DNA from: a virus
Taxonomy: Duplodnaviria > Heunggongvirae > Uroviricota > Caudoviricetes
Strand: one strand, 5' to 3'
IMG/VR virus record: IMGVR_UViG_2660238269_000008
DNA length: 43,719 nucleotides
In this document: one piece after another, positions 12,145 through 24,541 of the stretch
Layout: each line of letters begins with the position of its first letter
How positions within the stretch are numbered: position 1 is the first letter of the stretch
The notes under the pieces: model-generated
What the model was told of the DNA's origin: nothing
The model's database searches: none
Seen by the model: the letters and a program-made list of their open reading frames with translations, nothing else
Translations under genes and position numbers: made by a program

Positions 12145-12435
12145 CCTGGTCTGAAGCATTCCACAACGGTAGGAATCGCACTGGCGGTGGCGCTGGTGGT
12201 GTATTCGATTTGCCGCTGGGGATAAAAACGGTTTGCGGGAAAAGGAGAGTTAAGTAGAATTGCTGCGGGTGCTTGAGGCTGTTTGCCTCGGGCATGCCGC
12301 CGTAAGGCAGACAGAGAAAAGCCCCAGTTAACATTACGCGTCTTGCAGGACGCTTAACATTAATCTGAGGCCCAATCTATGCTTCACAAACGTAGGTTAG
12401 CCTCTTACGTGCCGAAAGGCAAGGAGAAGCAGGCT

Positions 12436-12591
12436 ATGAAGCAGCAAAAGGCGATGTTAATCGCCCTGATCGTCATCTGTTTAACCGTCATAGTGACGGC
12501 ACTGGTAACGAGGAAAGACCTCTGCGAGGTACGAATCCGAACCGGCCAGACGGAGGTTGCTGTCTTCGTAGACTACGAATCTGAGAAGTAA
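12436..12591 (+). CDS. hok: Hok/Gef-family type I toxin (HokD/RelF-like)
   Basis: MKQQKAMLIALIVICLTVIVTALVTRKDLCEVRIRTGQTEVAVFVDYESEK is near-identical to HokD/RelF as recalled; long structured leader upstream and hairpins downstream. Confidence 0.9.
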   Translation: MKQQKAMLIALIVICLTVIVTALVTRKDLCEVRIRTGQTEVAVFVDYESEK

Positions 12592-13384: not shown

Positions 13385-14434
13385 GTGCGGGTATTACTTC
13401 GACCTGTTCTGGTACCGGAACTCGGTCTGGTTATCGTTAAGCCAGGCCGTGAATCAATGTCAGTATTCCATAACGGCAGAATATTGGTGGAGCCGGAACC
13501 GAAAAACATGCGCGGTCTGCCGTCCGGAGTCGTTCCTGCCGTTCGCCAGCCGCTGGCAGAGGATAAAACATTACTGCCATTTTTCAGCGATGAGCGGGTT
13601 ATTCGTGCAGCAGGTGGTGCAGGTGCACTGTCTGACTGGTTATTACGTCACGTGAAATCCTGCCAGTGGCCACACGGCGATTATCATCACAGCGAAACAG
13701 TCATTCACCGTTATGGTACCGGCGCGATGGTGTTGTGCTGGCACTGTGACAACCAGCTGCGCGACCAGACATCAGAATCACTCGATCAACTTGCTCAGCA
13801 GAATCTGGTTGCCTGGATGATTGATGTCATCCGTCACGCAATAAGCGGTACGCAGGAGAGGGAGTTATCGCTGGCCGAATTATCCTGGTGGGCGGCCTGC
13901 AATCAGGTGGTGGATGCACTACCTGAGGCAGTAGCGCGTCGTTCGCTGGGATTACCAGCGGAAAAAATCCGCTCCGTATACCGTGAGAGTGACATCGTAC
14001 CGGGAGAACAGACAGCCATCAGCATACTGAAGCAGCGCACAAAAAATATTGCGCTGCCACTTCACGTCCACCAGCAACAAAATCCACCACAGAAAAAAAC
14101 GGTTGTCAGTATCGCCGTTGATCCGGAGTCTCCTGAATCGTTCATGAGGCGGCCTAAACGTCGCCGTTGGGTTAATGAGAAATACACGCGCTGGGTAAAG
14201 ACACAGCCGTGTGCGTGTTGTGGTAAGCCAGCTGACGATCCGCATCACCTGATTGGTCATGGTCAGGGGGGAGTGGGAACAAAGGCCCACGATATTTTCA
14301 CGCTACCGTTGTGCCGGGAGCACCACAACGAACTTCATGCAGACCCGCTGAAGTTTGAGAAAAAGTACGGCTCTCAGATTGAGTTAATTTTTCGTTTTCT
14401 TGATCACGCCTTTGCGACTGGCGTGCTCGGGTAA
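13385..14434 (+). CDS. DUF968 (YdfU-like) protein with C-terminal HNH-like zinc motif
   Basis: 349 aa, the length I recall for Qin YdfU; C-terminal CACCGKPADDPHHLIGHGQGGVGTKAHDIFTLPLCREHHNELH. Confidence 0.75.
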   Translation: MRVLLRPVLVPELGLVIVKPGRESMSVFHNGRILVEPEPKNMRGLPSGVVPAVRQPLAEDKTLLPFFSDERVIRAAGGAGALSDWLLRHVKSCQWPHGDYHHSETVIHRYGTGAMVLCWHCDNQLRDQTSESLDQLAQQNLVAWMIDVIRHAISGTQERELSLAELSWWAACNQVVDALPEAVARRSLGLPAEKIRSVYRESDIVPGEQTAISILKQRTKNIALPLHVHQQQNPPQKKTVVSIAVDPESPESFMRRPKRRRWVNEKYTRWVKTQPCACCGKPADDPHHLIGHGQGGVGTKAHDIFTLPLCREHHNELHADPLKFEKKYGSQIELIFRFLDHAFATGVLG

Positions 14435-14446
14435 AAGAGGTGACTG

Positions 14447-14809
14447 ATGCTCATAGATTTGGTTTTACCTTACCCGCCGACGGTGAACACTTACTGGCGA
14501 CGCCGTGGCAGCACATATTTTGTATCAAAAGCCGGGGAGCGTTATCGCCGGGCAGTGGCGCTTATTGTTCGCCAGCAGCGACTGAAATTAAGCCTGTCCG
14601 GACGGCTGGCAATAAAAATTATTGCAGAGCCACCGGATAAGCGCCGCCGTGACCTGGACAATATTCTGAAAGCACCGCTGGATGCGCTGACGCACGCGGG
14701 GTTGTTAATGGACGATGAGCAGTTTGATGAAATCAATATTGTACGTGGCAAGCCAGTATCTGGTGGACGGCTGGAGATAAGAATTACAGAGGTGGGTGTG
14801 CATGAATAA
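14447..14809 (+). CDS. rusA: Holliday junction resolvase RusA
   Basis: 120 aa; DKRRRDLDNILKAPLDALT and GGRLEIRITE align with RusA RRRDLDNLQKAAFDALT ... GGRLELTITE. Confidence 0.9.
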   Translation: MLIDLVLPYPPTVNTYWRRRGSTYFVSKAGERYRRAVALIVRQQRLKLSLSGRLAIKIIAEPPDKRRRDLDNILKAPLDALTHAGLLMDDEQFDEINIVRGKPVSGGRLEIRITEVGVHE

Positions 14810-15467
14810 CCAGTATTTACAGTTTGTTCGTGAGCAACTCATGATTGCCACTGCGGATCTTAGTGGGTCGACAAAAGGCCAGCTGGAAGTCTGGCAGGAA
14901 AATGCCCTGTTCGATACAGGGCGTTACAGACGCAAAAAAATTCGTTACCGCGATGAGGTAACCGGAAAAATGATCACGCGGGATAATCCCCCGATCCCGG
15001 GTAAACAATCACTGGCGAAAGGCTCATCAATTGCCCTGGTCAGTCCGGTTGAGTTTTCGACATCATCATGGCGACGCGCCGTTCTGTCTCTTGAAGAACA
15101 TCATAAAGCCTGGCTGCTGTGGTGTTACAGCGGTAGCATTTGCTGGGAGCATCAGATCGCGATAACGCAGTGGGCGTGGACTGAATTTAATGCTCAATCC
15201 GGTACCAGAAAAATTGCAGGAAAAACTCTGGTGCGCCTGAAGACGTTGATCTGGTTGGCGGCGCAGGCGGTAAAAGCTGAGCTTTTTGGTGGGGAAGGTT
15301 ACGAATACCAGGAACTGGCGTTACTGGTGGGAGTAACAACCAAAAACTGGTCCAAGACATTTACTGGTCACTGGGTTGCAATGAAACACATTTTTCATCG
15401 GCTGGATAGTGAAGCTTTATTGTTGGTGGAGGGAACACGTTCAAAACAAAAGGCGGCATTTTCATAG
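14802..15467 (+). CDS. Q: Late-gene antiterminator Q (non-lambda Q family)
   Basis: Position between rusA and a promoter plus short-RNA terminator; 222 aa. Confidence 0.65.
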   Translation: MNNQYLQFVREQLMIATADLSGSTKGQLEVWQENALFDTGRYRRKKIRYRDEVTGKMITRDNPPIPGKQSLAKGSSIALVSPVEFSTSSWRRAVLSLEEHHKAWLLWCYSGSICWEHQIAITQWAWTEFNAQSGTRKIAGKTLVRLKTLIWLAAQAVKAELFGGEGYEYQELALLVGVTTKNWSKTFTGHWVAMKHIFHRLDSEALLLVEGTRSKQKAAFS

Positions 15468-15473
15468 CAAAGT

Positions 15474-15502
15474 ATTGCAAAAGTAGATAAAAAGGCATAT
15501 AT
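15474..15502 (+). promoter_or_regulatory. Candidate late promoter PR' (TTGCAA-17-TATATT)
   Basis: Near-consensus sigma-70 elements immediately downstream of Q. Confidence 0.55.
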
Positions 15503-15554
15503 TTCGTGTAAATCTGATATTTTGCCGTTATTATACGTGATGGCAAAGCCACTA

Positions 15555-15585
15555 AAACCCGTGACCGAGCGGGTTTTTACCCCCC
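15555..15585 (+). terminator. tR'-like intrinsic terminator of a short 6S-like late leader RNA
   Basis: AAACCCG-TGACCGAG-CGGGTTTTT hairpin plus U-tract about 50 nt downstream of the candidate PR'. Confidence 0.65.
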
Positions 15586-15719
15586 AAAAAATGGCATAGA
15601 CATTAAACGTGATGACGATTGTGCCAATACTTTCTCCATCAATGACGCCCCTTGACTGCATGGAATCCAATTTGTTATGTAATGTGTGTTGATATTTTTG
15701 AGTTGTTAATGGTGTTACT

Positions 15720-16433
15720 ATGGATGACAGTGCTCTGCTCAGAAACTCTTCACTTTTTGTTGCTTATATGGGCTGTCTCGGATGGGGGAGCGCTTATTTC
15801 TATGGGTGGGGTACTTCATTTTACTATGGCTTTCCATGGTGGGTTGTCGGGGCTGGTGTCGATGATGTAGCACGAAGTTTGTTTTATGCTGTGACAGTTA
15901 TTGTTATATTCCTTATTGGATGGGGAGTTGGTATTGTTTTCTTTTTGGGCATAAAACAAAAGCGCAATATACAAAATTTGAGTTTTATCCGGCTTTTTCT
16001 CGCGATATTGCTGCTTTTTATTCCACCTGTTCTGGAGTTTTCTGTAATTCATCAGCATGTTGAGCCAGATGTACTGATTTTCTGCGTTCTTGCTGCCTTT
16101 GCAATCACGCTTTTTGTCAGGTCTGGAAGAAGACTTGTTTCAGTCAAATGTTTTTCGGAAATGTCTGTTATTCGCCATCACCGAATTGAGTTCATGATGG
16201 CTGGGTTTATGATTTATTTCTGGGCATTCTCTCTTATTGCCGGTTGGTACAAACCACAGTTTAAGAGGGAATATCAGGCGGTCCACTATGAGAATGTATG
16301 GTATTACATTATTGCGCGCTATGATGATCGTCTGGTGTTATCGAAATCATACAGGAGTGGGGGTAAGAAATTCGTTATATTTAATAGCGGAAATATTAAT
16401 GATTTTGAAATTAATACTGTCAGAGTACGTTAA
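15720..16433 (+). CDS. Integral membrane protein (about 5 TM segments), unknown function; moron downstream of PR'/tR'
   Basis: 237-aa ORF; hydrophobic segments rich in G/W/F/Y; AT-rich, unlike the flanking phage genes. Confidence 0.6.
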   Translation: MDDSALLRNSSLFVAYMGCLGWGSAYFYGWGTSFYYGFPWWVVGAGVDDVARSLFYAVTVIVIFLIGWGVGIVFFLGIKQKRNIQNLSFIRLFLAILLLFIPPVLEFSVIHQHVEPDVLIFCVLAAFAITLFVRSGRRLVSVKCFSEMSVIRHHRIEFMMAGFMIYFWAFSLIAGWYKPQFKREYQAVHYENVWYYIIARYDDRLVLSKSYRSGGKKFVIFNSGNINDFEINTVRVR

Positions 16434-16607
16434 AATTTCCTGAGTAATAAAGATTTTACTGCCCGGCATTGAGCGGTTTTTTTATGCCAGAAAAATGGTG
16501 CAGTACATAAAATGTGCAGGTGGTTATTAATACCGGTCTTTCAGCTTGCTGGCTTTTTTGACAAGAGTTATTGGTGTGTCACGTTAACCGGAAAAGGGAA
16601 AAAGACA

Positions 16608-16804
16608 TGCTGAAACAGCAGGATATGACAGAAACCGCCAGAGCAGTTTTTAATGAATTAAGTGCCACCGAACCGGCGACAGTCGGGGAGATTGCACAGA
16701 ATACGTACCTTTCACGCGAACGCTGCCAGCTAATACTGACCCAGCTTGTTATGGCGGGTCTGGCAGACTATCAGTTTGGTTGTTACAGACGCCTTCAGTC
16801 CTGA
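16608..16804 (+). CDS. Small winged-helix-like protein (65 aa)
   Basis: ATG at 16608 preceded by AAAGGGAAAAAG; within ORF 16571..16804. Confidence 0.45.
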
Positions 16805-16955
16805 AGGCTTTTTTATTTGTGGTAAATGGGCGGCTGGTGGGTGTTAGGGGCACTCACCAGCCATCTGCTCATGCGTTGGGGTCACAAGCAAACCTCAGGC
16901 CCATCTGCTTTGCGCAAAAGCGGTATGAGCCTATCAGAGACAGGCTTAATGATCC

Positions 16956-18014
16956 ATGTTTAATACTGTAAAAATATCCAGTTGTGAGTTAATCAACGCC
17001 GACTGCCTGGAATTTATCCGGTCGTTACCCGAAAATTCTGTTGACCTGATAGTCACGGACCCGCCGTACTTTAAAGTGAAGCCTGAGGGCTGGGATAACC
17101 AGTGGACGGGTGATGAGGATTACCTGAAATGGCTGGACCAGTGTCTGGCGCAGTTCTGGCGGGTGCTGAAACCTGCCGGAAGTCTTTACCTGTTCTGTGG
17201 CCATCGCCTGGCATCTGATATCGAAATCATGATGCGTGAACGCTTCAGTGTGCTGAACCATATTATCTGGGCGAAGCCGTCCGGACGCTGGAACGGGTGC
17301 AACAAGGAAAGCCTGAGGGCGTATTTCCCCGCCACAGAGCGCATTCTGTTCGCGGAACATTATCAGGGGCCGTATCGTCCGAAAGATGCCGGGTATGAGG
17401 CGAAGGGCAGGGCACTGAAACAGCATGTGATGGCTCCGCTGATTGCTTACTTTCGTGATGCGCGTGCTGCCCTGGGGATAACGGCAAAACAGATAGTGGA
17501 TGCCACAGGAAAGAAAAACATGGTGTCGCACTGGTTCAGTGCCAGTCAGTGGCAGCTACCGAACGAAAGTGATTATCTGAAATTACAGGCGCTGTTTGCC
17601 CGGGTGGCAGAAGAGAAGCATCAGCGCGGTGAACTGGAAAAGCCCCACCACCAGCTGCTGGAGACGTATACTTCACTGAACCGGCAGTATGCGGAACTGC
17701 AGAGTGAATATAAGCATCTGCGGCGGTATTTTGGCGTGACGGCGCAGGTGCCATACACGGATGTGTGGACGCATAAACCGGTGCAGTACTATCCCGGGAA
17801 ACATCCGTGCGAAAAACCGGCAGAAATGCTGCAGCAGATAATCAGCGCGAGCAGTCGTCCGGGGGACCTGGTTGCAGATTTCTTCATGGGGTCGGGTTCG
17901 ACAGTCAAAGCCGCGATGGCGCTGGGGCGTCGTGCAACTGGCGTTGAGCTGGAGACTGAACGTTTTGAGCAGACGGTCAGGGAAGTACGGGATTTAGTCA
18001 GTCAGAATGGATGA
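16956..18014 (+). CDS. Orphan DNA methyltransferase (amino-MTase, beta class: DPPY motif IV precedes FxGxG motif I)
   Basis: VTDPPY near the N-terminus, DLVADFFMGSGST near the C-terminus, with a charged/coiled-coil-like segment between; no adjacent restriction endonuclease. Confidence 0.85.
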   Translation: MFNTVKISSCELINADCLEFIRSLPENSVDLIVTDPPYFKVKPEGWDNQWTGDEDYLKWLDQCLAQFWRVLKPAGSLYLFCGHRLASDIEIMMRERFSVLNHIIWAKPSGRWNGCNKESLRAYFPATERILFAEHYQGPYRPKDAGYEAKGRALKQHVMAPLIAYFRDARAALGITAKQIVDATGKKNMVSHWFSASQWQLPNESDYLKLQALFARVAEEKHQRGELEKPHHQLLETYTSLNRQYAELQSEYKHLRRYFGVTAQVPYTDVWTHKPVQYYPGKHPCEKPAEMLQQIISASSRPGDLVADFFMGSGSTVKAAMALGRRATGVELETERFEQTVREVRDLVSQNG

Positions 18015-18054
18015 TATTGCAGGATTAGTTACGTACCGTTATTATCCTGCGCCC

Positions 18055-18130
18055 GGCCCTTTAGCTCAGTGGTGAGAGCGAGCGACTCATAATCGCCAGG
18101 TCGCTGGTTCAAATCCAGCAAGGGCCACCA
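18055..18130 (+). tRNA. ileZ: tRNA with CAU anticodon (Ile2, lysidine type; ileZ-like)
   Basis: Hand-folded cloverleaf: acceptor GGCCCTT/AAGGGCC, loop CTCATAA, T-loop TTCAAAT, 3' CCA; closely resembles E. coli ileX as recalled. Confidence 0.85.
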
Positions 18131-18139
18131 TATCACATA

Positions 18140-18216
18140 CCGCCATTAGCTCATCGGGATAGAGCGCCAGCCTTCGAAGCTGGCTGCGCGGGGTTCGAGT
18201 CCTCGATGGCGGTCCA
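18140..18216 (+). tRNA. tRNA-Arg (anticodon read as UCG)
   Basis: Hand-folded cloverleaf: acceptor CCGCCAT/ATGGCGG, anticodon stem CCAGC/GCTGG, loop CTTCGAA, T-loop TTCGAGT, 3' CCA. Confidence 0.75.
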
Positions 18217-18494
18217 TTATCTGCATTATGCGTTGTTGGTTCTGATGAGTGAATCATTGTCTTTTGAGCAACAGGCTATCATATAAGATAGCCTCAGACT
18301 TCCTTGTTTATTCTCGCCGGATGCTTCGTAGATATTTGCAGGCATCTGTATGCAGGGGTATTATTGCGGCATATATCATCCGGAAAAATAAAAACTACAT
18401 GCTGATCCGGAGATGATAGTTACAAGTCCTCCCGGATCCCGCATATTTACTATATTTTATAGATAATTGTTCTTGTTAATATGGAGATGGATAA

Positions 18495-18923
18495 ATGTAT
18501 TGCCGTGCTGTACCTGTTCTTGTTTTGATATTAGCCAGTCTGACAACTGGCTGCACAAAAGATGTATCGACAAATAATCATGATGCTTCTCTGTATCACT
18601 CAGATAAATTAATAAAGTCGCAAAATTTGAGCTCATCGGAACGTACCCCTGATGCCAGTGAAGAAATCCGGCAGTATGCCATTCAGGTCAGGAAAGCCAT
18701 AGAAGAACAGTTAAAGGATGCGAGTAAGTATTCAGGAAAAGAGTGTTCACTGAGAATGTATATGGCCCCGAATGGTCTTCTGCTACAGGTTAAAAGAGAA
18801 AGCGGTGATCCCGATTTATGTCGTGAAGCGATGAATGCAGTAAAGAATGCTGATATACCATCACCACCGTCTTCAGGAGTATATAAAGCATTTAGAAATG
18901 GCGTGCTGGATTTTAAACTCTGA
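18495..18923 (+). CDS. Lipoprotein with a TolA C-terminal domain III-like fold
   Basis: Signal peptide with lipobox LTTG-C; residues 60-142 align with E. coli TolA C-terminus (YAGKTCTLRIKLAPDGMLLDIKPEGGDPALCQAA...PKPPSQAVYEVFKNAPLDFKP vs SGKECSLRMYMAPNGLLLQVKRESGDPDLCREA...PSPPSSGVYKAFRNGVLDFKL). Confidence 0.8.
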   Translation: MYCRAVPVLVLILASLTTGCTKDVSTNNHDASLYHSDKLIKSQNLSSSERTPDASEEIRQYAIQVRKAIEEQLKDASKYSGKECSLRMYMAPNGLLLQVKRESGDPDLCREAMNAVKNADIPSPPSSGVYKAFRNGVLDFKL

Positions 18924-18980
18924 CAGGGGGAGAAGATTTTCTCCTGTCCTGATGATTTTGGGGCGCTGGAAAGATATTGT

Positions 18981-19240
18981 TCTGTGAAGTGTTAAATCCC
19001 TCACAATTCAGTAAGTTGACAGTTGCCTGTCAGACTGAGCATTTGTTAAAAAAATTTCGCATGGTGAATCCCCCTGTGCGGAGGGGCGACTGGTGAACGG
19101 TATGATCTCTTTGATGATCGTAAGCGAGAATACGCGGGTTTGGTGTCACCGGGCTGAACTCACCGGGAGGCACCCGGCACCATGCTCATGGTGATACAGA
19201 AATGCGGCTTCAGCCCCTCTCCGGAGGGGCTTTCTTATGG
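18981..19240 (+). repeat. Isolated copy (U1) of the ~250-bp hairpin-rich repeat family, ending in an intrinsic terminator
   Basis: Carries the three conserved modules tgttaaat.cctcaca, catggtgaatccccctgtgcggaggggc and ctcaccgggaggcacccggcaccatg, then gcccctctccggaggggc plus T-rich tail. Confidence 0.8.
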
Positions 19241-19384
19241 ACAAAAAAAGCCCGCGCTGGGAGACGCGGGCGGCAAGGAATAAACAATAAAACGTGAAGT
19301 AATACTTCAACTGGCGAATAATACCCGACAGTAATCACTCTGCGCAATAGCGTGGCCTTTTTCGAATTGCGGGCTGTAGTCTCC

Positions 19385-19556
19385 CTTCTGCCGGGTGTCC
19401 AGGTTGCAGATTTCTTCATGGGGTAGGGTTCGGCAGTTAAAGCAGCGATGGCGCTGGGGCGTCGTGCAACTGGCGTTGAGCTGGATACCGGGCGTTTTGA
19501 ACAGACTGCGCAGGAAATCAGGGATGTATTTAGCGGGAGCGGTTTGCAGAAGTAAT
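19385..19556 (+). pseudogene. 3' remnant of a second, diverged DNA methyltransferase gene
   Basis: High by-eye identity to the 3' end of the intact MTase (17866..18014), ends at an equivalent stop, but has an in-frame TAG in place of the MTase TCG codon and no 5' part. Confidence 0.75.
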
Positions 19557-19618
19557 CTCCCAAAATGCCATTTTTGGAATATACTGGTATTAAGTCTTTT
19601 TGCTCAGGTTAATTCAAA

Positions 19619-20344
19619 ATGGATGTTGCCTGCTCTGTGGTCCTGATTCGCTATCCGATAGATATTTTTCTTGAAAAAGAAAAAGTTTCACTCGATGCCG
19701 GAAGTGTTATGCTTGTTGCCAGAAATATAAGAGGGCTTTTCTGTGCTTATGCCGACAGAGTGAAAATGGCAGATATAAGTAACAGCGTCGTCAATCAGTA
19801 TCTGGAAAGGGAGTGTGAACTGACGGAGTATACACCGACAAAAATGCCTCTTTATTTGATGTCTGATATTTACAATACGGAACTGGCGGAGGCTTTAATA
19901 ACCCAGCATAGTGAATCCAGTGATACTTTGAAGGATTTCTCTGTTATAACCGCATTTTCATGTATCTCCTTATTTGCAACAGACAGACGTCTGCCATTAT
20001 TTTTGTCCGGTGCTGTAAATAATATCAGCTGTAAAGTAAGGGCTATAATTCAGACCGACATATCGGCAGGCTGGATGCTTGGTGTGATTGCATTACAATT
20101 GCATATGAGCGAAAGCTTGTTGAAGCGAAAACTTAAGGATGAAGGTTATAGCTTTAGTCGGTTGTTGCTGGAGGAGCGAATGCGTGTTGCTGTTAATCTT
20201 GTATGTTTCCAGCGAGAGTGTGGACAAGCGATAGCGGAAAAATGTGGTTACTCAAGTAAGTCCTACTTCATTTCTGTATTTCACCAGTATTATGGTGCAC
20301 CACCTGAGAGCTATGCATATTTGCAGAAAGCAGACGTTATCTGA
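19619..20344 (+). CDS. AraC/XylS-family transcriptional regulator, AppY/EnvY/AdiY-like
   Basis: C-terminal dual HTH aligns with EnvY/AppY (..CGYSS.SYFISVF...YG..P..Y); 241 aa; AT-rich. Confidence 0.8.
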   Translation: MDVACSVVLIRYPIDIFLEKEKVSLDAGSVMLVARNIRGLFCAYADRVKMADISNSVVNQYLERECELTEYTPTKMPLYLMSDIYNTELAEALITQHSESSDTLKDFSVITAFSCISLFATDRRLPLFLSGAVNNISCKVRAIIQTDISAGWMLGVIALQLHMSESLLKRKLKDEGYSFSRLLLEERMRVAVNLVCFQRECGQAIAEKCGYSSKSYFISVFHQYYGAPPESYAYLQKADVI

Positions 20345-20433
20345 TGTTTTTTCATCAGGCATATATTGATTGACTGTATTAGATATAGTCTGAATGTGTT
20401 CAGCATAAAAAGTTATAATCATTTGGTGTTTGC

Positions 20434-20712
20434 GTGAATATTGATGAGAAAATCAGATGTAGCCAACTGTTACAGCGTATTGAAGCCGTCAATGTGGAAC
20501 GAACAAAGGTCTTCAGTCGTCTGACAGTTTTATTTTGTACCCCTGATCGACGTTCAGGTCAGGAGATGGTTCTTCTGGATGTAGATGCACTTCGGAACGT
20601 CTGTGAGGAGTTCACCGCGGCTAATTCGGAGTTACTGAGTCTTGTTCAGGAGTACAACAGAATTGCAGGTAGTAACGGTTTTGATGAAATCAAAATTATA
20701 TCCCGTGGATAA
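20434..20712 (+). CDS. Small hypothetical protein (92 aa) downstream of the AraC-like regulator
   Basis: ORF with GTG start; same strand as the regulator. Confidence 0.4.
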   Translation: MNIDEKIRCSQLLQRIEAVNVERTKVFSRLTVLFCTPDRRSGQEMVLLDVDALRNVCEEFTAANSELLSLVQEYNRIAGSNGFDEIKIISRG

Positions 20713-20954
20713 AACATATCCTGTATATTTATGTTGTTACATACAGGCGCTTTTAGTATCTGCCGCACGGCAGTTGTACTTCAGAATAAGATGCTTTTGT
20801 GACTGGTGGTGTTGTATCTGGGGTTAGCCAGTAGGCAGGTTCAGAGAGTCCGGTGGTAATTATGTGTATGCAGTGGTTGTTGCTGTACCGTGGGCAAGTT
20901 CTGGAACTGGCTTCGTCCATTGTAGATGATTGTTAGCTGGATATCAGTTACCTC

Positions 20955-21980
20955 ATGGAAATGTTAAATGACTCACAATTCGGTTGATGGGCTATTGTCT
21001 GATCGATGGAAGTCTTGTAAAAACGAGCCAGCATAGTGAATCCCCCTGTGCGGAGGGGCGTCTGACATGGTCTCCATAGCGATGGTCACAATACGCAGAT
21101 TCAGTAGTCAGGCTGAATCTACCGGGAGGCACCCGGCACTATGCTGCTTATGGTGTATACATAGCGATCGGCCCCTCTCCGGAGGGGCTTTTTTTGTGCG
21201 GGAAAAGGCTGTGTTGTTAAGTGTTAAATTCCTCACAGTTCAGATGGTTGATGCTTGCCTGTCTGAGGGGGAGTTGTTAAAAAAGTTCTGCATGGTGAAT
21301 CCCCCTGTGCGGAGGGGCGACTGGTGTGATTTGCATCTTTTCTGTTGTAGGCAATGCAAACGCGGGTTCAGGGACACCAGACTGGACTCACCGGGAGGCA
21401 CCCGGCACCATGTTCATGATGATACAGATACGCAGTGTCAGCCCCTCTCCTGAGGGGCTTTTTTATGCAGGAAAAACGCTGTGTTGTGAAATGTTAAATT
21501 CCTCACAGTTCAGATGGTTGATGCTTGCCTGTCTTACGGGGAGTTGTTAAAAAAGTTCTGCATGGTGAATCCCCCTGAGCGGAGGGGCATATCAGCGCAG
21601 GTGTTTCTACTCTATCCTTTCTGTGCGGGTTCAGGTGCTGATACTGAACTCACCGGGAGGCACCCGGCATCATGCATATGGTTAACAGACACGTAGCGAA
21701 GCCCCTCTCCGGAGGGGCTTTTTTATGCAGGGAAAAGGCTGTGTTGTGAAATGTTAAATTCCTCACAATTCATGAGGTTGATGATTGTCTGATTGATGAG
21801 GAGTTTGTTAAAAAAAACGGGCATGGTGAATCCCCCTGTGCGGAGGGGTGATATCGTATCATTTCCTGTGTGGCCGACTGATATCACGGACATTTGTTCA
21901 CCGGGAGGCACCCGGCACCATGCAGTATACAGAGATTAGGCATACATCCAGGCTCCTCATCGCAGGAGCCTTTTTACATG
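20955..21980 (+). repeat. Tandem array of four ~250-bp units (U2-U5) of the hairpin-rich repeat family; candidate structured ncRNA genes
   Basis: Units at about 20955-21196, 21205-21465, 21481-21726, 21741-21980; same conserved modules in each; variable segments keep self-complementarity; each unit ends in a terminator hairpin plus T-run. Confidence 0.8.
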
Positions 21981-22208
21981 TAAAAAAAAACCGCTCCTGG
22001 GAAGAGCGGTTGGCAAGGAAGCAAGGAATAAATAACAAAACGTGAAGTAATTTATTCAGCACCCTAATAATACCTTAGAGTAATCACCTTGCGCAACTGT
22101 AAGGGCGTATTTCTTTTTTGCGGGCTGTTTTTCTGTGTGACTTTTGTGTTTCCGGAGGTCAGCCCGTGCCTTCTCTGACTCAGAACATTATCCCGGCCGG
22201 GAGGATTC

Positions 22209-24173
22209 ATGGCATTTAAACACTACGATGTGGTCAGGGCGGCATCGCCGTCAGACCTTGCTGAACGACTGACACAAAAACTGAAGGAGGGCTGGCAGCC
22301 ATTTGGCAGTCCGGTGGCCATCACGCCTTATACCCTGATGCAGGCCATTGCGGCGGAAGGTGATGTCACCACACCAGTGGCGGTGACCGGTAATGAGGGT
22401 AAGGCGGTGGCTGTCAGTGCCACCAGCGACCCGGAGTATTACTTTGTTGTGGTTCTGGCAGGGCAGTCAAATGGCATGTCGTATGGTGAAGGTCTTCCGC
22501 TGCCGGAGACATATGACCGTCCGGACCCGCGTATTAAGCAGCTGGCGCGCCGCAGTACGGTGACACCGGGCGGTGTCGCCTGTAAATATAACGACATCAT
22601 TCCGGCGGACCATTGTCTGCATGATGTGCAGGACATGAGCCGTCTTAACCATCCGAAAGCGGACCTGTCAAAAGGGCAGTACGGAACCGTGGGGCAGGGG
22701 CTGCATATCGCCAAAAAACTGCTGCCGTTTATACCGGCGAATGCGGGTATTCTGCTGGTTCCGTGCTGTCGTGGTGGTTCAGCGTTCACCACCGGAGCTG
22801 ATGGCACATACAGTGACGCTGGCGGTGCCTCGGAGAATTCAGCGCGCTGGGGTGTGGACAAGCCGCTGTATAAGGACCTTATCGGTCGAACAAAAGCAGC
22901 ACTGAAGAAGAACCCGAAAAATGTGCTGTTTACCGTGGTGTGGATGCAGGGGGAATTTGATTTTGACGGCACGCCCGGAAATCACGCAGCACAGTTTGGT
23001 GCGCTGGTTGATAAATTCCGTGCAGACCTGGCGGATATGGCAGGCCAGTGCGTCAGTGGCTCTGCTGGCAGTGTTCCCTGGATATGCGGGGACACGACGT
23101 ATTTCTGGAAGCAGAAGAACGAATCCACGTACCAGACGGTGTACGGCAGCTATAAAAACAAAACGGAAAAGAATATCCATTTCGTACCGTTCATGACGGA
23201 TGAGAACGGGGTGAATGTGCCGACGAACAAACCGGAAGAAGACCCGGACATTCCGGGTATCGGGTATTACGGTTCGAAATGGCGTGACAGCTCAGCCACC
23301 TGGACGTCACAGGACAGGGCGAGCCATTTCAGCACCTGGGCACGCCGGGGGATTATTTCCGACCGTCTGGCAACGGCGATTCTGGTGCACGCCGGGAGAA
23401 CCGCTGAATTCATTACCGGAAAACAGCCTGATATGGTGAAGCCCACCGTACCTTCCGGTGAAGGTCCGGAGAGAGAGGCGGAAGCCCCGGTCAGTAACCG
23501 AACCCTGATGAGTCTGCTGGCATCCGGCGAAGACCTGGCATCACAGGGCTGGCGCTATTATCACAAACCGGCGGGCGGAGACAGTGTTAACAAAAACATT
23601 GCTGAAGCGGTGGTCAGTGATGCGGGGGCTACGGGAGGTAAGGCTCTGCAACTGAACAAACCGGAAAACCACATCTGGTTTCTGGAGCATGATGCAGCCG
23701 GACAGGGTGCGGAGTTACTGAAGAAGGGCGGACGTGTGAGCGTACGGTTTAAGTTGCCGGGTTCACTGGTGCCGAATCAGTTTGCCCTGGGCATTTACTG
23801 GCAGTTGTCGTCCCTGCCGGAGGGGGTGACGCTGTCAGGAGAAGGTAACGATATGCTGATGTCCTTCTTCCTGCAGACGGATACGACGAACCTGAACGCG
23901 ATGCATCACAGGAAGCCGAATGCGAAGCTGGATACATTCGGGGTCTTTGATAACGGATGGCACACGCTGGCTTTTGAGTTTGCCGGAAACAACAGCATTC
24001 AGGTGACACCTGTACTGGATGAGAAACGGGGAGCGGCGTTCACACTGGTGAAGTCACCGGCATCGGGGGCGGCGGACAAACTGCAACTGACCGATATATC
24101 AAAATCGGCGACGTATACGCTGCTGATTGACAGCATTGCGGTGGAAGTGAACAGCACAGACACTGCGGCATGA
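22209..24173 (+). CDS. nanS-p: Prophage 9-O-acetyl-sialate esterase NanS-p (SGNH/SASA esterase)
   Basis: 654 aa; GQSNGMSYG esterase motif; size and position (immediately upstream of the lysis cassette) match the NanS-p genes that follow stx in Stx phages. Confidence 0.75.
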   Translation: MAFKHYDVVRAASPSDLAERLTQKLKEGWQPFGSPVAITPYTLMQAIAAEGDVTTPVAVTGNEGKAVAVSATSDPEYYFVVVLAGQSNGMSYGEGLPLPETYDRPDPRIKQLARRSTVTPGGVACKYNDIIPADHCLHDVQDMSRLNHPKADLSKGQYGTVGQGLHIAKKLLPFIPANAGILLVPCCRGGSAFTTGADGTYSDAGGASENSARWGVDKPLYKDLIGRTKAALKKNPKNVLFTVVWMQGEFDFDGTPGNHAAQFGALVDKFRADLADMAGQCVSGSAGSVPWICGDTTYFWKQKNESTYQTVYGSYKNKTEKNIHFVPFMTDENGVNVPTNKPEEDPDIPGIGYYGSKWRDSSATWTSQDRASHFSTWARRGIISDRLATAILVHAGRTAEFITGKQPDMVKPTVPSGEGPEREAEAPVSNRTLMSLLASGEDLASQGWRYYHKPAGGDSVNKNIAEAVVSDAGATGGKALQLNKPENHIWFLEHDAAGQGAELLKKGGRVSVRFKLPGSLVPNQFALGIYWQLSSLPEGVTLSGEGNDMLMSFFLQTDTTNLNAMHHRKPNAKLDTFGVFDNGWHTLAFEFAGNNSIQVTPVLDEKRGAAFTLVKSPASGAADKLQLTDISKSATYTLLIDSIAVEVNSTDTAA

Positions 24174-24541
24174 TAAAAAAGCCGCCAGTTACCGGAATGG
24201 ACTGGCGGGTGAGCTCTATGGACACTCCAGAGAAACATTTTTGTACATGAATATTTTTAAATGAAAAATATTCTTATTGTCAATATGTGTCAGCGGTATT
24301 TGCGGGGCAAAAAAATCCACCAATAAGCACAAGGAGAAATGCGTCATGCTTCTGGTGGAAATAGTACGGCTGTGAGGTTTTATTGTTATGCATGCCATAA
24401 TTTTTCTACACAAAAGCGATTCTTAATGTCAACACGTTTGACAGGGAATTGTTGAGCACTCAGAGTAACTACACGAGGCTGTCAGTGGTGCACTGGCGGC
24501 CTTTTTCATGTTGTGAGCTTCCGGATTGCGGGAGACGGGGT

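Follow-up and report, generated by a model that had tools for sequence, protein, structure and literature searches.

The late region of the prophage described here carries two cargo cassettes in series, each running from a DNA methyltransferase sequence through cargo genes and STnc100 small RNA (sRNA) genes to a tail of related sequence. The second cassette begins with only the 3' end of its methyltransferase gene. This stacked locus very probably arose by a single illegitimate crossover between two diverged lambdoid phages. It lies in a stretch of 43,719 nucleotides, hereafter the window (IMG/VR record IMGVR_UViG_2660238269_000008), and its features are collected in Table 1. An earlier note on this DNA had proposed that two modules of the form methyltransferase, cargo, repeat and tail were joined by recombination, with truncation of the second methyltransferase. 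The sharp joint at 19392|19393 and the occurrence of both single-cassette forms in other prophages bear this proposal out. It can be refined: judged from alignments with other prophages, the two cassette copies are derived from diverged phages and not from a duplication in place.

Table 1. Features of the stacked locus and its neighbours, in window coordinates.
Feature	Position	Strand	Basis or remarks
Intact N6/N4 DNA methyltransferase gene, 352 aa, start of cassette 1	16956..18014	+	Pfam PF01555, E = 6.9e-44; PGAP DNA-methyltransferase
Two tRNA genes: anticodon CAT (ileZ-type) and tRNA-Arg TCG	18055..18216	+	ARAGORN, Rfam tRNA, PGAP
Cargo 1: 142-aa lipoprotein-like protein, TolA C-terminal domain	18495..18923	+	Pfam PF06519, E = 5.7e-23; GC 41%
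STnc100 sRNA gene (repeat U1 of the earlier reader)	19030..19242	+	Rfam RF02076, 172.4 bits; own terminator 19212-19231
Tail 1: 5'-truncated EcOnc08/EcOnc21-type sRNA locus, also nanS-p upstream region	19243..19392	-	Terminator 19271-19250 (minus)
Recombination joint	19391..19393		nanS-p-leader homology to 19392; methyltransferase homology from 19391; overlap CC
Methyltransferase 3' remnant, 165 bp, 55 codons	19391..19555	+	TAG at 19424-19426; without N-terminal catalytic DPPY region
Cargo 2 segment	19581..20867	+	GC 40.7%; AraC-family regulator and orf92
AraC-family regulator	19619-20344	+	Pfam HTH_18/HTH_AraC; 61% identity to Sakai PsrA/ECs1087
orf92	20434-20712	+	No Pfam match
Four tandem STnc100 copies, U2-U5	21002-21197, 21261-21470, 21532-21730, 21792-21981	+	Rfam RF02076, 119-142 bits
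Tail 2: complete, diverged EcOnc08/21-type locus and nanS-p leader	21982..22208	-	Terminator 22011-21989 (minus)
nanS-p, SASA-family sialate O-acetylesterase, conserved phage gene normally 3' of the tail	22209..24173	+	Pfam DUF1737, SASA, DUF6645; PGAP

The source DNA is an Escherichia coli lambdoid prophage of the Stx-phage-like kind, and the stretch under study belongs to its late region. Window positions 19230-19650 are 100% identical to E. coli 2011C-3911 (NZ_CP015240), in which the PGAP annotation around the joint lists RusA, antiterminator Q, two hypothetical genes, a DNA methyltransferase, two tRNAs, a 'TolA' protein, a methyltransferase pseudogene, an HTH protein, a SASA esterase (nanS-p) and a holin. 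These annotations imply late transcription from Q on the plus strand. In Stx phages with the same backbone, stx is located between the tRNAs and nanS-p, and a moron insertion site downstream of PR' with convergent sRNA pairs has been described (Tree et al., 2014, Mol Cell; PMC4104026). The moron slot downstream of Q holds a methyltransferase gene, tRNAs, a cargo (stx in Stx phages), a convergent sRNA pair, nanS-p and the lysis genes, with STnc100 on the late strand and the second sRNA of the pair on the opposite strand. The moron concept itself reportedly goes back to Juhala and colleagues in 2000. Read-through of terminators by Q-antiterminated late transcription is established lambdoid biology, and the STnc100 terminators would be passed in the same manner by transcripts from the late promoter.

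The tRNA gene at 18055-18130 is called tRNA-Met (anticodon CAT) by ARAGORN and tRNA-Ile by PGAP, and corresponds to the ileZ-type of Stx-phage tRNA clusters. The prophage has two of the usual three tRNAs, argO being missing. The TolA-domain cargo 1 (18495-18923) occupies the stx position of Stx phages and has a promoter-like site at 18335-18364; homologues with ~82% DNA identity are found in ~770 other complete E. coli genomes. Its product could serve as a TolA mimic, for example in the exclusion of Tol-dependent phages or colicins.

At the joint, homology to the nanS-p leader ends with ...CTTCTGCC at 19392 and homology to the methyltransferase gene starts with CCGGGTG at 19391. The breakpoint is therefore sharp and fuses tail 1 to methyltransferase nucleotide 904. 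Tail 1 halts ~70-72 bp before the position of the nanS-p ATG, where other phages go on with ATTGTCCTGTAACTTCC..., and the window after ...CTTCTGCC reads GGGTGTCCAGGTTGCAGATTTC. The latter is methyltransferase sequence, the intact allele having ...AGTCGTCC|GGGTGACC. Comparison of tail, window and intact allele thus indicates that CC is all the parents have in common at the crossover, and such a 2-bp microhomology tells little about the enzymology of the join. Among the tails from IMG/VR and E. coli that are readable far enough, ~112 continue ...CTTCTGCC|ATTGTCC into the nanS-p leader and 9 continue ...|GGGTG into the joint. As read from these alignments, the joint truncates the sRNA locus of the tail as well as the methyltransferase gene. 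Of 5,426 complete E. coli genomes, 88 have the joint, mostly those of STEC and bovine isolates of several serotypes; from its present occurrence in many strains, the stacked product was evidently viable. All nine joint-bearing sequences examined have the breakpoint, an in-frame TAG and four to five other substitutions in common, which points to one ancestral event behind all joints.

A self-comparison of the locus had been suggested before, and self-BLAST of 16900-22300 indeed pairs the methyltransferase ends with each other and the tails with each other. Positions 17859-17974, at the 3' end of the intact methyltransferase gene, match 19391-19506 at 89.7% over 116 nt (E = 4.5e-38). The earlier note had thus correctly recognized a diverged methyltransferase 3' copy, although its limits of 19385..19556 have to be narrowed to 19391-19555. 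It was also right about the internal TAG (19424-19426) and the lack of a 5' part, but the stop codon is not the equivalent of that in the resident gene: over its last ~50 bp the remnant follows another allele, whose reading frame has 3 more codons (355 vs 352 aa). The frame opens at 19391 and runs to a TAA at 19553-19555, interrupted by the TAG, which is a TCG-to-TAG change. With this codon read as Ser, the translation matches positions 184-219 of 221 in Pfam N6_N4_Mtase (PF01555; E = 1.4e-7), scoring 32.1 bits against a cut-off of 26.7. The (D/S)PPY motif, present in the intact copy as ..VTDPPYF.., is missing from the remnant. PGAP annotates the same 165 bp of NZ_CP015240 as a methyltransferase pseudogene ('internal stop; missing N-terminus'). 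Compared with the 3' end of the intact methyltransferase gene in IMG/VR contig L024 and E. coli SMBL, the remnant has 95.8% DNA identity and an identical C-terminal peptide.

Substitutions in the remnant are unevenly distributed. Six differences from the intact allele fall within the 54 nt next to the joint (window 19391-19444), a cluster that is also seen in L001, L007, L008, L048, L049, L058, L063 and L068. Relative to the intact alleles collected, two of the six are allele polymorphisms of intact genes and four are found in the remnant only. The remaining 111 nt equal the intact allele in most carriers, and the L049 remnant has 14 substitutions. Error-prone repair during joining is one possible source of the cluster, and a true parent with a slightly different sequence is another. 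Lacking the catalytic N-terminal part and having a stop codon common to its descendants, the remnant is, by its sequence, a non-functional scar. That it has been kept for a function, as promoter or leader of the AraC-like gene or as a small protein, is very improbable. Its presence in all 88 carriers and the intact state of its last 111 nt in most of them would fit such a role; however, a short segment between selected neighbours is expected to persist anyway. Furthermore, the in-frame TAG is shared, start codon context and catalytic motif are absent, the L049 copy has diverged as noted above, and a consensus scan of the plus strand over 19393-19619 returned no promoter-like site.

Other 5'-truncated methyltransferase fragments are found in prophages from IMG/VR and E. 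coli, with breakpoints at nt 213, 763 and 949, plus a 50-bp internal piece (loci L051; L006, L010, L035 and L087; L015, L108 and L122; L017 and L072). In GN05476, the nt-763 fragment sits after an oppositely oriented ompC-like porin gene. The presence of remnants with other breakpoints in other prophages indicates that methyltransferase scars are common at the moron site, and on this comparison exchanged segments repeatedly have their left boundary in the methyltransferase gene. These fragments also bear on how cassette 2 arrived. Its sharp left boundary and AT-rich cargo would be compatible with a mobile element that a transposase or site-specific recombinase had inserted in the nanS-p leader. 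Such insertion is nevertheless extremely improbable, as no transposase or integrase is annotated by PGAP within ~14000-24400 and no inverted repeats were detected by self-BLAST of 16900-22300. Moreover, the right end of the supposed element is undefined and merges into homologous phage sequence, and the varied breakpoints in other prophages (nt 213, 763 and 949) are those that random illegitimate events predict.

The crossover reading is supported by the two single-cassette architectures found among related prophages, in which the earlier note had expected the parental modules to be found (L024 and SMBL for one type; GN05476 and ~35 genomes for the other). In the right-hand type (L024 and SMBL, the latter being L131), an intact 355-aa methyltransferase ending ...DTGRFEQTAQEIRDVFSGSGLQK, which is the C-terminus of the remnant, is followed by the AraC-like gene, orf92, STnc100, tail 2 and nanS-p. 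Identity to this type is 99.2% over window 19391-21058 (L024) and 98.2% over 19391-21317. A query spanning the junction between intact methyltransferase and AraC-like gene is fully covered in 1 of 5,426 complete E. coli genomes, that of SMBL, whose AraC-like protein is identical (WP_000382066.1). In the left-hand type, represented by GN05476 (L006), tRNAs, TolA-like gene, STnc100, tail and nanS-p follow one another with no second cassette. A synthetic left-parent junction query is covered to at least 80% in 123 genomes; the 88 joint carriers among them match only up to the joint, and the remaining ~35 complete genomes have an unbroken run of TolA, STnc100, tail and nanS-p. A near-identical left parent was not found in this search, the best match with a TolA-like gene having 88.9% identity; among the matches listed (every 45th of the ranking), the best unbroken STnc100-tail-nanS-p match to 19000-19392 reaches 93%. 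In the window, nanS-p and the sequence downstream have 92-94% identity to the right-parent type, compared with about 82% for the left-parent type, a likeness to the right parent that a single crossover predicts. As the nanS-p of L024 and SMBL is only 92-94% identical to that of the window, further exchanges followed the joint.

These comparisons also argue against a tandem duplication, from methyltransferase to tail, within one phage, followed by divergence and cargo replacement. Both units have the same order of parts, head to tail, as duplication would produce. However, the copies differ by 10% in the methyltransferase ends and by 26% in the tails, whereas the external relatives L024 and SMBL are 95.8-99.2% identical. 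The last 50 bp of the remnant are of the other allele class, and the two cargos are unrelated. Contradicted by a near-identical right-hand module outside the window, duplication in place has next to no probability.

A second alternative concerns the order of ancestry. The direct repeats of the stack (methyltransferase ends, STnc100 copies and tails) could resolve it to either single-cassette form, and SMBL, L024 and the GN05476-like prophages might then be descendants by homologous deletion and not parents. Suitable repeats exist, at 116 nt and 89.7% for the methyltransferase ends, ~200 nt and 74% for the tails, and 250-500 nt and about 81% for the STnc100 copies. The stack also greatly outnumbers the SMBL type, by 88 genomes to 1, and L049 exemplifies a derivative with a deletion. 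In contrast, an in-frame 3' fragment with a conserved motif must stem from a full-length allele, so that an ancestor of the SMBL/L024 type existed. In addition, the methyltransferase 5' part of L024 and SMBL is 96.5% identical to the intact copy of the window, compared with 99.2% for the cargo, which makes a recent origin from this left cassette unlikely. Descent by deletion, which would alter the order of ancestry and not the nature of the joint, is on this evidence an unlikely account. We infer the direction of events and the occurrence of a single event. The same holds for the parent-to-product direction in the case of SMBL and L024, since the direct repeats could resolve the stack: these forms could be secondary products of homologous deletion between the intact gene and the remnant.

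In the preferred history of a single illegitimate crossover, one phage (phage A) would have given everything up to ~72 bp before the nanS-p start codon, namely the methyltransferase gene, two tRNAs, the TolA-like cargo, STnc100 and tail 1. The other (phage B) would have given everything from methyltransferase nucleotide 904 on: 55 codons, the AraC/PsrA-like regulator, orf92 and the STnc100 copies, as well as tail 2, nanS-p and the lysis genes. The exchange would have taken place in dispensable DNA, between co-resident or co-infecting phages, with two cargo cassettes in series as its product.

The second cargo segment differs from its surroundings in base composition, with a GC content of 40.7% compared with 51.6% for the window. 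In L049, the joint and its flanks are kept and 19581-20867 is missing, with a 2-bp AT overlap at the point of deletion or insertion. By its presence or absence between collinear flanks and its deviant composition, cargo 2 is a probable moron. Its AraC-like protein shares 61% identity over 193 aa with ECs_1087 of the Sakai prophage Sp4 (BLASTP), and ECs1087 was named PsrA in a 2026 paper, as a prophage-encoded regulator of type III secretion and GadE. Cassette 2 may therefore carry a virulence or acid-resistance regulator of the Psr family. A consensus scan of cargo 2 returned no sigma-70-like site upstream of 19619 and only a weak terminator-like hairpin at 20760-20773. When one genome per species was searched with the AraC-like cargo, the sole match was an unrelated protein of Neiella with 34% identity, and no parental module was found outside E. 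coli in that set.

The repeat units U1-U5 are STnc100 sRNA genes by covariance-model match: each aligns to positions 1-206 of 206 in Rfam RF02076 with 119.5-172.4 bits, compared with a gathering threshold of 47 bits. The number of copies before tail 2 varies, with four in the window, two in L049 and one in L024. The terminator hairpin of U5 and of some other STnc100 copies (AGGCTCCTCATCGCAGGAGCCT) is unlike that of U1-U4. STnc100, which is in Rfam, overlaps EcOnc27/sRNA103 (PMC12711010) and is located just downstream of stx2B (PMC12370729), and a preprint describes PasD as structurally similar to it.

The earlier observation that similar tails follow U1 and U5, the second leading into nanS-p, holds as well. 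The duplicated tails extend over 19243-19392 and 21982-22135. Self-BLAST aligns 19160-19347 with 21898-22096 at 73.9% over 207 nt (E = 7.8e-11), a stretch that takes in the STnc100 end. Conserved blocks are GCAAGGAATAAA.AA.AAAACGTGAAGTAAT, AATAATACC, AGTAATCAC, TTGCGCAA and TGCGGGCTGT. Judged by their alignment scores, the similarities of the methyltransferase ends and of the tails are both far beyond chance. In every related locus examined, STnc100, tail and nanS-p start codon form an unbroken run, which identifies the tail as the normal nanS-p upstream region.

The tails also appear to encode an sRNA on the minus strand, which opens with a GC-rich hairpin and T-run adjoining the STnc100 terminator. 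Three variants of this hairpin are found, and pairing is kept by compensatory changes. Hfq-CRAC peaks in Sakai Sp4 comprise EcOnc05 (plus strand; STnc100), then EcOnc08 (1179938-1180010, minus strand) and EcOnc21 (1180016-1180101, minus strand), whereas EcOnc42 is the homologue in Stx1 phage Sp15, with an RNA of ~271 nt on Northern blots (Tree et al., 2014, including Table S2; PMC4104026). The Sakai EcOnc08 peak sequence has 4 mismatches to the minus strand of tail 1, in the same position and orientation. The EcOnc21 equivalent spans the rest of the tail and reaches beyond the position of the joint, and tail 2 is a diverged homologue of the EcOnc08/21 locus (~74%, tail vs tail). By this homology, the minus strand of the tails is the published Hfq-bound sRNA locus EcOnc08/21/42, convergent with STnc100. 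Two other candidates were rejected. Esr41 is located in SpLE1 (PMC5286369), and no Rfam Esr41 match lies near any tail. AsxR and AgvB (RF02703, RF02702) gave no covariance-model match in window 18900-22300 at E <= 5, with AsxR scoring 88.1 bits in the same slot of VT2-Sakai as a positive control. Full-text literature searches with tail sequence strings returned irrelevant primer matches only.

Because the cut at 19392 falls within the EcOnc21-equivalent part, the ~271-nt unit is incomplete in tail 1. On the alignment, tail 1 is without the minus-strand part upstream of 19392 and hence without whatever promoter drives the ~271-nt RNA. A promoter-like element, TTGCGC-18-TATTAT, is nevertheless found within tail 1 (19347-19318, minus strand). 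Tail 2 and each of the 52 collected tail variants keep both hexamers, and the CRAC peak of EcOnc08 begins directly downstream; tail 1 may retain this putative internal promoter. A tentative and rather doubtful extension is that cassette stacking is a route to multiply and diversify prophage sRNA genes, the cut tail 1 still yielding a ~70-nt Hfq-type sRNA from the internal promoter. If so, the locus would express two diverged sRNAs of the EcOnc08 family in addition to five STnc100 copies. The convergent sRNA pair would then be a portable 3' end-cap, and the repeats would let the array expand, contract or revert to either parent.

In L064, L070 and L126, the tail stops after ...GCGCGGCCT, and the 3' end of a phage lysozyme gene follows ~36 bp on. 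This arrangement indicates a probable deletion of nanS-p, the holin gene and most of the lysozyme gene in these loci.

Much of this locus has known counterparts. The moron site of Tree et al. (2014) has the same layout, with Q, methyltransferase or tRNAs, cargo, STnc100 (EcOnc05/EcOnc27), a convergent Hfq-bound sRNA and nanS-p; in contrast, the window has two such units stacked, and its first convergent sRNA locus is cut at the 5' side. The stx-flanking region of Stx phages (methyltransferase, ileZ-argN-argO, stx, STnc100, nanS-p) shares 85-94% DNA identity with the window across methyltransferase, tRNAs, STnc100 and nanS-p leader. However, the window is without stx and has in its place the TolA-domain lipoprotein gene, followed by the second cassette with the PsrA-like regulator. 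As in the model of phage mosaicism of Hendrix and Juhala, in which mosaic joints of lambdoid phages arise by illegitimate recombination and are then selected, the joint is sharp and novel, shares 2 bp, lies in dispensable DNA and has gene fragments on both sides. It shows no essential difference from that model and is a well-resolved case with both parental architectures still traceable. STnc100, EcOnc08/21/42, the moron site with convergent sRNAs and the PGAP pseudogene were thus already known, and the joint is an instance of ordinary phage mosaicism.

What the locus adds is an example, resolved to the base pair, of the way in which late regions with several cargos are built in lambdoid and Stx-like prophages: a single illegitimate crossover can place a second cassette in the slot that Shiga toxin occupies in other phages. 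Two points concern annotation. The 165-bp methyltransferase fragment is best labelled a scar, and for the '~120-bp tail' after STnc100 the appropriate annotation is the EcOnc08/21/42 antisense sRNA locus. Phage mosaicism as currently understood is not altered by either point.

AsxR and AgvB occupy the same slot as the tails, on the minus strand adjoining the STnc100 terminator, and in VT2-Sakai AsxR takes the place that the first part of the tail has in the window. They differ in length, at 51-60 nt, from the EcOnc08/21/42 group to which the window tails belong, reported at ~271 nt on Northern blots. When VT2-Sakai (L129, 1421-1530) is compared with window 19243-19392, the space from the STnc100 terminator to a shared block (CTGCGCAA..GCGCGGCCTTTTTCG..) is seen to hold either of two inserts, AsxR in the former and EcOnc08-type sequence in the latter. 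This block has the TTGCGC hexamer, 18 nt upstream of a -10-like hexamer that reads TAAAAT for AsxR and TATTAT in the window. On this comparison, the antisense-sRNA slot is itself modular.

Two further features lie outside the stack. A sok antitoxin RNA match at 12267-12441 (Rfam RF01794, 115.8 bits) implies a putative toxin-antitoxin locus of the hok/sok type in the early region of the prophage. A hydrophobic ORF of 237 aa, annotated as hypothetical, is located at 15720-16433 between Q and the methyltransferase gene and is missing at that position in the relatives AF3 and UTI89; it may be a further accessory insertion just downstream of PR'.
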